From Paraglomus brasilianum (taxonomy: Eukaryota), in contig CAJVPI010000109.1 of NCBI GenBank assembly GCA_910592345.1, forward strand, positions 1 to 53,322: a DNA stretch of 53,322 nucleotides, in the 5' to 3' direction. Of this stretch, positions 21,896 through 36,896 are shown in pieces; the stretch's first letter is position 1; the number at the start of each line of letters is the position of its first letter. Position numbers and translations under genes: made by a program. The notes under the pieces are model-generated. The model had not been told where the DNA came from. It saw nothing but the letters and a program-made list of their open reading frames with translations, and did no database searches.

Positions 21896-23226
21896 ATGGC
21901 AAGCATTTTCTCATCACCGCTTCCATTGACAGACCACAATTTTGTAGAACCTCGCAAGATGATCAGACAGCATAGTGACATTGACGTTTGGGTAGAGTCT
22001 AAGGCATTTGCACGATTTTTGATGTTCATCAAATTGCTAAATGAAAGCATTCTCAACAAGAAGATCTCGGATCCATGCACCGTTTCTGAGGTTTACATTT
22101 TCGATTCTTGCATTAAAATGTACGTGAATTAACAAAAGAATGAGTTATCGATGGCTAACTTTGGCTTTGAATAAATCCATCATAGACAACTCAGAAACTC
22201 GTGGACATTCTAGAGCAGTTATCGAATTGGATAGATGAGATCCCCCCATTACCAACCCCGCAACGGTTTGGAAACAAGGCATTTCGTGACTGGATTGCTC
22301 GCTTAGAGAATGTATTCAATCGTCTATTGTTTAACAACTTTTTAGTAAACAATTCATCAGCTGCCTGAGATTTAACCATTTTATTATCCAGAATGCAGTT
22401 GAGATACATAAAAATCTCCTTTTACCTCAATGGCATGATGCTATAGTTGAACTGGTACCACTGTTTAATGGAAGTTTTGGTCATGGAATACGCATTGATT
22501 ACGGCAGTGGTCATGAACTAAACTTTGTTACGTGGTTGTGTTGTCTTACTCTTTTGGGTGTTTTTACACAAGAGGATTATCATGCTCTGATCTTGAGAAT
22601 ATTTTCAAAGTAAGGTCAACCTGTTTCAGTCTTTTTTTTTTCTTTTGTGAACTTTAATTAACTTCAATATTTACAGATATCTGGATCTTGTGAGAAAACT
22701 GCAAATTGTTTACAATCTTGAACCAGCCGGAAGCCACGGTGTGTGGGGACTAGATGATCATCAGTTTCTCTCGTACTATTGGGGAAGTGCTCAGTTAAGA
22801 GGTTAGCTGCATACTGACAATTACGATATATTAACAATAACAATTTCATTGACTGAATTGATGAACGTACTTCAGATCACCAACGTCTCAAACCCAAGTC
22901 GATTATCAATAAAGAGTTTGTAGAAATGTTTGCTGACGATTACATGTATTTTGGATGCATTAAACATATTAACAAGGTAATTATCCATAACTACTGGCAT
23001 GGCTATGTAATAAGGCTTGTTAACTGTCTATTTGAACATATAGATAAAAAGAGGACCTTTTCATGAGCACTCGCCTATACTCTATGACATCTCAGGAGTG
23101 CAATCATGGCAAAAGGTTAATTCTGGGTTATTGAAGATGTATGTTGCCGATGTTCTCAAGAAATTTCCTATAGTTCAACACTTACTATTCGGTACTCTTC
23201 TTCCGTTCGAGCCTAACCAAGACTAG
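21896..23226 (+). CDS. PP2A phosphatase activator PTPA (Rrd1/Rrd2 family), multi-exon
   Basis: [66 protein letters not shown]...KFPIVQH. Confidence 0.95.
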
Positions 23227-23865
23227 TCAACGGATAGCAATCAGTCTTTGGCAATACTAAACGTCTAGCATAAATATAATTTATTTGTATTAATAATTAT
23301 TAGCGAATTTTTGGGTGCATCACTTGGGTGCAATTTCAACGTCCGAACAACTCATACCTACTGTATCTCGTGGATAAGTTTTAGCATTTAGCTAGCCAAA
23401 TGAGCATATTTCGAGTTATGTATTAAAATCCTCGATGACATCAATAACTGTCTTGGTTTGTGTGTTAAAAGCAAATCTACGTGCAAGCGCAAACTCGATC
23501 GCAATCTTGTCTTGAACGTGATGGATGTATTACCATAGAACAAGCTATTGCTATCGAGAGTTTCTACATATACGTATACCGATTGAGTACAATTTTATTT
23601 TCTTCTGGGCCGCTCATCAAGTGTATGACTATTCGGCTCTGTTGAATGCTTAAATTGGAGAATTCACCGTGATATCGCGTAATTATTTAAATCTCCGATC
23701 TCATATATACGCCAATTCATGCAACTGGAACATGGTTATGTGACCGAGTTTTCTAGTTGGCATTACATGCATAAGAATAGAACGCACAGAACTGACTTTT
23801 TTGATTAGACGCGTATTTTGGAAGGAAATAAAGCCTAAGCATTTTATTCCAAAAACACGAACTTA

Positions 23866-25091
23866 AAGCCTTATTGGAACGGCATAGTCTCAGAAATTGT
23901 GGTTATCCATTTGTGACTGACTCTGCCCCCCCCCCCCCCCCCATACTACAAAACTCATGGTTTTCGTCAAGGAAGAAGAGTCCCCCGACGAGAACCCCAA
24001 ACAAGGGAAAAAACGTTAATGAGCATGAGGACAAGAGACTTCAAAAATCATGCGCATGGGGTGAACGCAAATTCGTGCGAACTGTTGTGCGTATTGGAAT
24101 GTGATGAAGCATTAACTGCTAGGTATGATTGTTATTTTTCGATTCTTTTTTTGTTTCGATTCGTTTTGATTTATTTTATTTTTATTTTTATTTTTATTTT
24201 TATTTTTATTTGTTGTTTTATTGTTATTTTTATTGTAATTGTTATTGCTATTTTATTGTTATTGTAATTGTTATTTTATTTATTTATTTTTGACAATTTT
24301 AGGGGCAAGATAATTAACCAAAATATAGAAACCAGCAAAGTTCGATAAACGAGTATTTATCCGCCGCTTTCACCGTCATACTCGATTATCAAAGTTCGTC
24401 TTTGTCGAAATAATTCGTGCGCAGAATTTTTCAAAATCCACGTTTATATCCATGCTTTCCGCATACCTGTTATCACTCTGGACGACAAACGCGATTTGTG
24501 GCCGCTTCATTTCGAAAAAAAAAAAAGGCATAATAATAAGTGGCCTGTTCCTCACAGAATAACGTCCGACAAAACTAATGAATGGAAATTTTCATGACAC
24601 CGCGAAACCTAAGCGGATAGTTCTATTCATGCAGTTTCCTTCACATTGTACTCTCCTACTAAAAATTGGCCAATACAACATTGGGCGTCTATGCAAGCAT
24701 CTTCTATCTATAAAGGACAAGCTGGTTGCCTCTAGTTCAAAACGTAAGAAGAAAAATCATAAAAAGAGTGTCGCGTTTTTTACTCGTCGAATTTGATGCC
24801 ATTATCATTCTTCCTTTTGAGGTGTCGAATATGGTAAATCGTAAAACAAGAAAGATAACACGAAAAACCGTTCGTAAAATGCTCTGTTGGGGCCACTTTC
24901 GCCAACGTCTAATGGCTAAAGCAGAAGAATTAGGTTCATGTTATTATCCAAAATGAGGCATACACTTCAAAAACTTGCAGCTGGTGTGGGAGCGTTCAAA
25001 AATTAGGAGGGTCCGGTGCCGAAAATTGTGGGACTGTAATGGATCGAAATGAAAATTGGCGCTCGGGAATGCATTGCTTGATGGAGCCTAG
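23866..25091 (+). pseudogene. Degenerate Fanzor (IS607-type TnpB-like RNA-guided RuvC nuclease), with putative intron 24123-24302
   Basis: Collinear motifs across frames: KPYWN, SQKLWL, NSWFS, KVR*TSIYP, TLYSPT..KIG...RLCKH, HKKSVAF, EFDAIIILPFEVSNMV (RuvC-II), RKMLCWGH.FRQRL..KAE, NEAYTSKTCSWCG, CR.CG, MDRNEN-GAR (RuvC-III), ALLDGA*. There are many indels. Confidence 0.85.
24165..24292. repeat. (TTTTTA)n/(TTGTTA)n hexamer low-complexity tract inside the putative Fanzor intron
   Basis: Seen directly in the sequence. Confidence 0.85.
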
Positions 25092-25362
25092 ATTCTCAGT
25101 TATAGTAGTAATGCCTATTGATATGTTACAATCCATCCGGCAGTACCAATAGACACCACTCTACGTAAATATTTTAATAGTTGCTACGGTTTTATTAAAG
25201 ATTTAGTGAACAGTATGGTCTAGTGAAGTAGGATATATAATGCAAAATTCAAAGCTTCATGATAAATTTATTATACATTGCTAACAACACTCGCATTTCC
25301 AAGAACTTGTTTTCGACCCGCAAATAATTCGTCTATAGAATTGATTGTACGTTCTATCGATT

Positions 25363-31507
<6,145 letters not shown>

Positions 31508-35000: not shown

Positions 35001-36896
35001 GAGGCAAGAAACGAGAAATCTCGACACCCGATAACATTATATTCCCTAATTCAGCGGCGGCACCGGTGGCAACGTTCGTAACGCGCGAATACAAATCTGA
35101 TAAATTGCGTAATGCATTTGAAACACAAAGAAGTCAGCCAGTGCTGACGAAAATTCACCGTGAAATTTTCGAAACACGAACCGCAAGTGGAGTACATATC
35201 TCGCCAATCCGCACGCCTCCTAAAAGAACTATAACGCAACAACAGAGAACGCCATCTGCTAGACCTAGAACTCGATATGATCAACGGCGGAACATGGGAT
35301 TTAATGTAATAAGCTGGGATAAAAAGGTGAAAGAATTTATTAAGAAAGACGAGAAAATATTAAATGAAGAGGAGGAAGAAGGTGAAGAAGGTGAAGAGTT
35401 CTATGATGAAGATGAGGAAGAGGATGAAGTAGTGGAGGAAGTGGTGGAGAAAGAAGTGGTGGAGAAAGAAGTGGTGGAGGAAGTGGTAGATGAAGAAGTG
35501 GAGGAGGAAGAAATGGTGGAGGAAGAAGTGGAGGAGGAAGAGGAAGAAGTGGTGGAGGAAGAAGTTGTGGAGGAAGAAGTTGTGGAGGAAGAAGTTGTGG
35601 AGGAAGAAGTGGCAGAGAAAGAAGTGGCAGAGGAAGAAGTGGCAGAGGAAGAAGTGGCAGAGGAAAAGGTGGCAGAGGAAAAGGTGGCAGAGGAAGGAGT
35701 GGTGGGGGAAGTGGTAGAGAAATTGGTGGAAGAAGAAGTGGTGGGGGAAGTGGTGGGGGAAGTGGTGAGGGAAGTGGTAGATGAAGAAGTGGAGGAGGAA
35801 TATGTGGAGGAGGAATTGGTGGAGGAAGTGGTGGTGGAGGAAGTGGTGGTGGAAGAAGTGGTGGTGGAAGAAGTGGTGGAGGAAAAGGTGGCAGAGGAAG
35901 AAGTAGTGGAGGAAAAGGTGGCAGAGGAAGAAGTGGTGGAGGAAAAGGTGGCAGAGGAAGAAGTGGTAGGGGAAGTGGTAGAGGAATTGGTGGAAGAAGA
36001 AGTGGTGGGGGAAGTGGTAGAGGAAGAAAAGAAGGAGGATGCATATGAGGAAGAACAGAAAAAGTTGGAAGAAGAGAAATCAATTAGTGAAATGGCCTTC
36101 GGACAACTTGCAATCAGTCAACCAACATTTGGACAGTCTACAATTACTCAAACCACCTTTGGACAGACTACAATTACTCAACCTACCTTTGGACAGACTA
36201 CAATTACTCAACCTACCTTTGGACAGACTACAATTACTCAACCTACATTTGGACAGACTACAATTACTCAACCTACATTTGGACAGACTACAATTACTCA
36301 ACCTACATTTGGACAGTCTACAATTACTCAACCTACCTTTGGACAGGCTGCAGTTGGTCAACCTACCTTTGGACAGCCAGCATTCAGTCAGCCTACCTTT
36401 GGACAGCCAGCATTTGGTCAGCCTACCTTTGGACAGCCAGCATTTGGTCAGCCTACCTTTGGACAGCCAGCATTTGGTCAGCCTACCTTTGGACAGCCAG
36501 CATTTGGCCAACATGGATTTGGTCAGCCCGTATTTGGCCAACATGGATTTGGTCAACATGGATTTGGCCAGAATCCTACCCTTGCTGCTCAATCTTCTTT
36601 GAAAGCACCAACAACTGGTGGATTTGCTAGATATACAAGGTATGGCATGATATTGTCTTTATTCATACTTAATACAATATGAGTTAACGTCTTCCCCTTA
36701 ATGTTTAGTAATAGTAAACTTGGAGGCTTCGGTGCACCCTCAGCACCAAGGTTAGTCAATGAAATAGTATTTATTAACTGTTGAATTTGTAGTCTATTTA
36801 TATCTATTTGATCATATATTAATATCTTTCTTTTTCCAATACAGTGATAATACAAACACACCCCAAGATTCTCGTTTTACACAGCATCGAGGATAA
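32073..36896 (+). CDS. NUP159: Nucleoporin Nup214/Nup159 family, multi-exon
   Basis: N-terminal beta-propeller (SLFALSNTFGYFVAA, CWSPKGKQIACG, IVGMALDFT, PPAPILYIL), coiled-coil exons at 34.2-34.9 kb, an acidic tract, C-terminal xFG repeats, GGFARY, and the end FTQHRG*. Confidence 0.9.
35365..36075 (+). repeat. Glu/Val-rich coding low-complexity tract (EEEVV/EEKVA pentapeptides), nearly C-free purine-rich strand
   Basis: 15-nt GAGGAAGAAGTGGTG-type repeats, in frame in ORF 34931-36682. Confidence 0.9.
36118..36570 (+). repeat. FG-repeat array: 30-nt units QPTFGQTTIT, then QPTFG/QPAFG and QHGFG units
   Basis: Near-identical tandem 30-mers CAACCTACmTTTGGACAGACTACAATTACT. Confidence 0.95.

Follow-up and report, generated by a model that had tools for sequence, protein, structure and literature searches.

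Positions 24123-24302 of the window, the whole 53,322-nt stretch of DNA analysed here, very probably hold a real spliceosomal intron, as judged from sequence comparison across a fungal transposon family of the IS607 type that encodes TnpA together with Fanzor2. The intron was likely gained once, in one sub-lineage of this family, and the host spliceosome likely removed it while the nuclease gene still worked, a splicing event that would join ..ACTGCTAG to GGA/GGG.. in the mature message. The window copy decayed afterwards, and a T-rich repeat lengthened its insert.

The insert and its element in the window

The element occupies positions 23847-25139 in heavily deleted form. It lies in a eukaryotic genomic context, between the intron-rich host genes PTPA and ABC transporter, whose best matches are found in Glomeromycota. 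The features of the region are listed below, where L numbers denote loci of relatives.

23044..23223, plus strand: last exon of PTPA, an intron-containing host gene and the left neighbour (Pfam PTPA, E 1.6e-25)
23847..23995, plus strand: remnant of tnpA, an IS607-type serine recombinase gene (blastn to L003, L006 and L001)
24006..24122, plus strand: surviving part of Fanzor2 exon 1 (..KRLQKSCAWGERKFVRTVVRIGM / DEALTAR; tblastn 84% over 32 aa to P0009, and pairwise alignment with L013)
24123..24302, plus strand: very probable phase-2 GT..AG intron, 180 nt, GC 0.14 (same-site inserts in L001, L013, L017, L020, L057, L073 and L005)
24303..25097, plus strand: decayed Fanzor2 exon 2 (many small deletions, RuvC-I IDPG lost, NEAYTSKTC retained)
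24336..24398, no strand assigned: window-specific 45-nt insert (24345-24389) with its flanking repeats, the source of a spurious TSIYP motif
25098..25139, plus strand: conserved non-coding stretch at the element's 3' end, terminating ..AATCCATCCG (common to 15 loci, sequence variable beyond) and predicted to be the end of the omega-RNA scaffold
25369..31406, minus strand: ABC transporter, a multi-exon host gene and the right neighbour, also used as host-intron control

The best matches of the ABC exon are Glomeromycota in 15 of 15 cases (54-66% identity), so that the host is likely an arbuscular mycorrhizal fungus or a close relative of one. Six host introns predicted in this gene, each backed by 6/6 homologs, measure 74-107 nt with a GC content of 0.23-0.41. 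Farther to the right, positions 35422-36570 of the window contain long purine-rich tandem arrays, built of 15-nt and 30-nt units and strongly skewed in GC and AT, which look like coding-like repeats, e.g., FG-type units. The window copy of the element itself is dead. Besides numerous short stretches, it lacks its left end and the aspartate of RuvC-I, and in exon 1 the WED/HTH start is deleted together with about 48 nt preceding DEALTAR.

The features of the insert on which the original prediction was built, namely a donor AG/GTATGA at 24123 (the slash marking the splice position), an AG end at 24302, a length of 180 nt and phase 2, were all confirmed, and its joined translation, ...CDEALTAR-GKIINQNIETSKVR followed by a stop and TSIYP, was reproduced. 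The T-rich hexamer interior corresponds to a period-6 array at 24170-24291 with 20.5 copies, spanning 122 of the 180 nt, and the branch-like site is found as TTGAC 13 nt ahead of the insert end; overall, the insert is ~70% T. It had further been proposed that removal of the insert brings a downstream motif into frame. This does not hold, since 180 nt is a multiple of three and exons 1 and 2 already share one frame, so that excision leaves the frame unaltered, the only loss being 60 codons and one stop. Moreover, TAGG is present at both ends of the insert, and the GT..AG ends alone are weak evidence for an intron because any insert that starts with T and comes with a 4-bp duplication at this place yields them. 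After removal, the window junction matches the DEALTAR/D of relatives.

The reading of TSIYP as the start of the WED domain had to be abandoned as well. In intact relatives the true motif, IKVYPN (VYPN; Pfam HTH_OrfB_IS605), precedes the intron by ~120 residues and is deleted from the window copy, while the stop followed by TSIYP (24346-24363) sits in the separate 45-nt insert. The latter has 12-bp inverted ends (11/12 match), lies between 9-bp direct repeats at 24336-24344 and 24390-24398 and is missing from six aligned relatives; its limits were set by these direct and inverted repeats, MAFFT not isolating it. No second copy was found in the window or in 80 loci of relatives. In its organisation it resembles a tiny MITE or a Mutator-type footprint.

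The transposon family and its same-site inserts

A search with positions 24714-24953 returned 21 longer relatives (56-84% identity), and a profile built from 14 of these 21 gave 844 matches, among which the named organisms are Diversispora, Gigaspora, Cetraspora, Rhizophagus, Glomus and one chytrid. The best PDB match is 9b0l, the mimivirus Fanzor2 ApmFz2 (E 3e-23). Intact relatives consist of a tnpA gene with MerR-HTH and resolvase domains that overlaps the 5' part of a Fanzor frame of ~630 codons; in L001 and L003, Pfam detects Resolvase (E 2e-9 to 3e-9) plus the MerR HTH on the ORFs that correspond to the tnpA remnant. We then considered the alternative-Glu/DPG fingerprint of Fanzor2 as it is defined in the available part of Yoon 2023 (PMC10711439). 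Of 20 aligned rows, 16 have IDPG at RuvC-I; the window copy has lost it, and in L017, L057 and L073 it is altered or cut. The alternative catalytic Glu, which precedes the zinc finger by six residues, is retained within NEAYTSKTC in most relatives as well as in the window. The full pattern is found in 23 of the 55 matches of at least 330 aa and fails in P0009, which carries a Cys change. A quick tree of 55 proteins, midpoint-rooted and with long branches, places the fungal group beside cyanobacterial and other bacterial TnpBs, Moorena among them, and this position and the IS607-type tnpA both agree with the prokaryotic derivation originally proposed for the nuclease.

The right end of the element, ..AATCCATCC(G), is common to 15 loci, with a flank that varies beyond it; one G after this end is kept in 14 of the 15, and GG is found in three of them and in the window copy. 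IS607EU elements are characterised at their termini by a GG dinucleotide at the ends and by the lack of TIR or TSD, and the window copy is without a left end. Pattern scans of GTDB genomes and IMG/VR found no relative; nine viral pattern matches were discarded as chance, as none of the nine was upheld by tblastn.

Several structural peculiarities were seen in individual members of the family. The Fanzor2 frame and tnpA overlap by ~500 nt in different frames in L003, L007, L001, L006 and L012 (coordinates 594-1271 and 760-2640 in L003, and 2-838 and 222-2138 in L007), and a (CAC)n tract there encodes either poly-Thr or poly-Pro, depending on the frame. L016 has an internal inversion of ~150 nt inside tnpA (499-954), and L011 has a tandem duplication of ~150 nt immediately upstream of the tnpA start (601-760), which replaces the left-end sequence common to L003, L006 and L016. 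Five copies, L002, L006, L008, L013 and L017, share an in-frame stop at codon 151 (numbered in the L001 frame), where intact copies have Arg; this stop is spread over different clades and may mark a CpG-deamination hotspot. Finally, the Borealophlyctis protein model P0054 joins FHA and HMG-box domains (Pfam) to Fanzor2, a fusion that is either real or a gene-model artefact.

A metagenome scan yielded 147 relatives, of which we examined the best 80. Twenty of these are family loci that cover the insert site; the other 60, i.e., eight family fragments that stop short of the site and distant TnpB-like loci with ~30-50% identity, were excluded from the site count. Of the 20 site-covering loci among these best 80, seven have an insert at one and the same place, DEALTAR/D in phase 2, and 13 are without it. 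The inserts measure 91 nt in L001, 76 nt in L013 and in L017, 52 nt in L020, 94 nt in L057 and 144 nt in L073, while in L005 the contig end cuts the insert off and leaves the acceptor side only. The ends are GT..AG in the window and in five of the six complete relatives, the sixth (L073) having a GC donor (GC..AG). Across the seven complete inserts, window included, hardly any change is seen in the 8 positions at either end, while the length varies 3.5-fold (52-180 nt), with 3n+1 lengths in five of the seven. The interiors are T-rich and variable, and their tandem units differ between the window and L073. A YTRAY motif lies 10-14 nt before the insert end in 7/7, though such a motif is weak in T-rich DNA. 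The GC content of the inserts (0.08-0.17) is below that of the host introns, and the 76-94 nt forms resemble the latter in length.

Aligning family copies had been part of the original prediction, and the alignment gives what it anticipated, conserved insert ends around an interior of variable length. Its converse, that relatives which read through the segment or lack GT-AG would reveal a simple microsatellite insertion, is too blunt, since intronless and intron-bearing relatives both exist. A 20-nt pattern taken from the 5' end of the insert has one exact match in the 53-kb window and one match with three mismatches (0.06 expected), and it is exact in 4 of the 80 loci, always at the DEALTAR/D site.

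The most informative relative is L001, in which exons 1 and 2 are open around an insert whose 91 nt are not a multiple of three, with all catalytic motifs and no stops. Once these 91 nt are removed, the ORF is unbroken and equals that of the intronless L011, which shares 98-100% identity with L001 over the CDS (150-nt windows) and is without the insert to the base. L001 is the sole intact intron-bearing copy, stops or frameshifts being present in seven of the eight copies that have the insert. Most intronless copies are broken as well, with L003 and L007 among the intact ones. L013 and L017 are near-copies (95.7%) with identical inserts, so that the family offers about six independent examples. 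Sequencing runs were compared with L057. The DNA run of the best-matching organism (X4) gave 160 family contigs, of which one, 118 nt long, spans the site and carries the insert in a form shortened by 14 nt; no joint that skips the intron was seen among the 15 of 17 joints listed, contigs of this kind showing presence and not absence. Three RNA or possibly-RNA runs (X9, X13 and X19) touched 15, 2 and 4 of 30 bins, and the insert site lies outside them.

Probable gain, selection and loss of the intron

The bases at the insertion site bear on the age of the intron. All eight intron-bearing copies read AG/G, as do, among intronless loci, only L002 and L011, and the site is AG/A in 10 of the 12 aligned intronless loci. 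Because the intronless outgroups have AG/A and every intron-bearing copy has AG/../G, we infer a single gain. Either a silent change would have created AG/G before the insertion, or the G would be a footprint and L002 and L011 would descend from intron-bearing ancestors. The intron itself may have arisen when a short T-rich sequence was inserted at a TAG(G) site and 3-4 nt were duplicated, as in intron gain by break repair. That the intron is instead old in the fungal Fanzor2 family and was repeatedly lost, rather than gained late in one sub-lineage, is unlikely: L011 and L002, which lie inside the intron clade or next to it, lack the insert exactly and show that loss (or passage through cDNA) happens, but the deeper loci L006-L010, L012, L019, L075 and L003/14/16 are all intronless, AG/A prevails over AG/G among the aligned intronless loci, and many losses would have to be assumed. 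Eighteen protein matches that read through the site add little, biased as they are to intronless or already-spliced models.

A late, single gain nevertheless has to be reconciled with copies of mixed ancestry. L001, L011 and L002 are mosaics, ~90% like L013 in their 5' halves and ~91% like L003 or L006 in their 3' halves, a pattern which suggests that subfamilies have recombined. As a result of this mosaic make-up of the family, local trees require 2-3 changes of intron state, and a single change suffices in 0% of bootstrap trees. The intron of L001 is close to that of L013, and L011 has the mosaic make-up of L001, which makes exact loss or a spliced cDNA the simplest account of L011; a later exact loss, or cDNA origin, may thus apply to L011 and perhaps to L002. 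The 5' flank of L011 seems to contain an unspliced host intron, AT-rich with GT..AG ends and an in-frame stop, and this would favour a DNA route as a lead. For the exon downstream of this flank intron, Atlas gives SH3/Tudor-like leads (sub-0.9) and Pfam gives nothing. L011, L002 and P0009 could each be of cDNA or of DNA origin. It is tempting to speculate, though only tentatively, that these copies capture the life cycle of an intron within a still-mobile IS607 transposon, i.e., gain, spread under selection on the nuclease, and exact loss (L011 versus L001, 99% identical) via spliced cDNA or TAGG microhomology. If true, the family would offer a natural system, present in many copies, in which both gain and loss of introns can be measured, the element itself generating double-strand breaks.

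We next turned to selection on the nuclease after the gain. The intron-bearing sequences fall into subclade A (L005, L013 and L017) and subclade B (L057, L073, L020 and the window), which together form a 7-row clade with a support of 100/99, or 100/100 on the 3' part; L075 was omitted from the local trees and from dN/dS. Comparing the majority codons of A and B (261 codons) gave 32.5 synonymous and 29.5 non-synonymous changes, corresponding to a dS of 0.22, a dN of 0.05 and a dN/dS of 0.22 (Fisher p 4.8e-8), and exon 1 alone gave a dN/dS of 0.26 (p 0.019). Private tip changes are not distinguishable from neutral (1.87, p 0.49; 0.63, p 0.07), and the ratio for the window alone (0.48, p 0.11, 128 codons) is uninformative. 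The test assumes that the intron was already there when A and B split, which is probably the case, since the intron sequences differ by subclade and no peak of identity is seen near the intron. Purifying selection between the two intron-bearing subclades suggests that the nuclease gene was likely functional after the gain, and an insert that breaks the frame of a selected gene would have to be spliced. With the nuclease likely under selection after the gain, the Fanzor2 of this fungal IS607 family would be expressed via the spliceosome and would matter to the element. Taken together, the same-site inserts of variable length, the L001 reading frame and the low dN/dS support the original idea that a Fanzor gene gained its intron before it decayed. 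The accompanying notion of adaptation to eukaryotic expression goes further than the data, as what they show is tolerance of an intron, with 13/20 loci intronless, including the intact L003 and L007.

The same observations make it quite improbable that an unspliced T-rich filler with a TAGG duplication killed one Fanzor copy and was spread by TnpA, with GT..AG as a by-product. Such a filler would account for the TAGG direct repeat at both ends, the low-complexity interior and the stops or frameshifts in nearly all insert-bearing copies, but not for purifying selection between two insert-bearing subclades, for an L001 frame that is intact on either side of a non-3n insert, or for conserved ends around a middle of such variable length; intronless copies, moreover, are mostly broken too. 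The insert is very improbably an introner, that is, a mobile intron also present in unrelated genes: it shares with introners the short direct repeat at its ends and a recent gain, but the 5' end conserved among the inserts was found a single time in 53 kb and, within the 80 loci, at this site only, and no inverted ends were seen. Expansion of a simple microsatellite confined to the dead window copy would fit the period-6 array, but as the source of the insert it is refuted, with practically no probability left to it, by the six other loci that share the insert with a different tandem unit or none and by the 5' pattern that is exact in four other loci; it holds only for the extra length, the hexamer repeat being a late expansion within an older intron of 76-94 nt.

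Relation to known systems

Introns are known to be gained at (A)G/G sites flanked by short direct repeats, either through break repair or from transposon-derived DNA. The spliced, late-gained intron that we favour shares with these cases a phase-2 insertion at AG/G and TAGG at both ends; it differs in that the inserted DNA is untraceable, being of low complexity, and in that no sister copies were seen in other genes (53 kb and 80 loci). It offers a clean case for intron gain, namely a bacterial-type gene with zero ancestral introns and a gain restricted to one sub-lineage, and the near-identical plus/minus pair L001 and L011 suits tests of intron loss. On the practical side, gene callers that ignore introns split these Fanzor2 proteins in two and so overlook compact nucleases that are intact, L001 among them.

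As with the published intron-bearing Fanzors, we deal with a TnpB-derived gene that has acquired a spliceosomal intron. According to the available portions of Jiang 2023 (PMC10530073; 10.1101/2023.06.13.544871), Fanzor genes captured introns at up to about 9.6 introns/kb, with RNA-confirmed introns in Chlamydomonas Fanzor1c, and Fig. 1D gives intron density by family, Fanzor2 among them, so that Fanzor2 introns may already have been counted there; two of its supplement files contain no Glomeromycota names. Bao and Jurka 2013 (PMC3627910), in the sections at hand, describe multi-exon Fanzor1, including CRe elements with 5-10 EST-supported exons, and the occurrence of Fanzor2 in IS607-like elements, a group named IS607EU in the accessible part of a 2026 review (PMC13565253). 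In the main text of Yoon 2023, "intron", "splic" and "glomer" have 0 occurrences, and a literature search that left most subscription papers and Repbase outside its scope found no paper on this fungal IS607/Fanzor2 family. As far as the portions available of these sources go, the named confirmed cases of Fanzor introns are Fanzor1 in Helitrons, whereas here a Fanzor2 lies beside an overlapping IS607 tnpA and, unlike in those cases, near-copies with and without the intron exist side by side.

With IS607EU, as portrayed in the parts available of Bao and Jurka 2013, Yoon 2023 and PMC13565253, the family shares a serine-recombinase tnpA, a Fanzor2 with DPG and the alternative Glu, and a right end that is conserved next to a variable flank; it differs in its host, likely a Glomeromycota fungus, and in a window copy that is dead and has its left end missing. 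IStrons, in the account given by the accessible part of PMC13565253, likewise combine an IS607 element with an intron, but there a group I intron, a self-splicing ribozyme, excises the whole element from host mRNA, whereas here a short internal GT..AG insert lies in the nuclease gene. Intron capture by Fanzors is already published, and what the present family adds is a datable gain in a Fanzor2 lineage together with near-identical copies that do and do not carry the intron.
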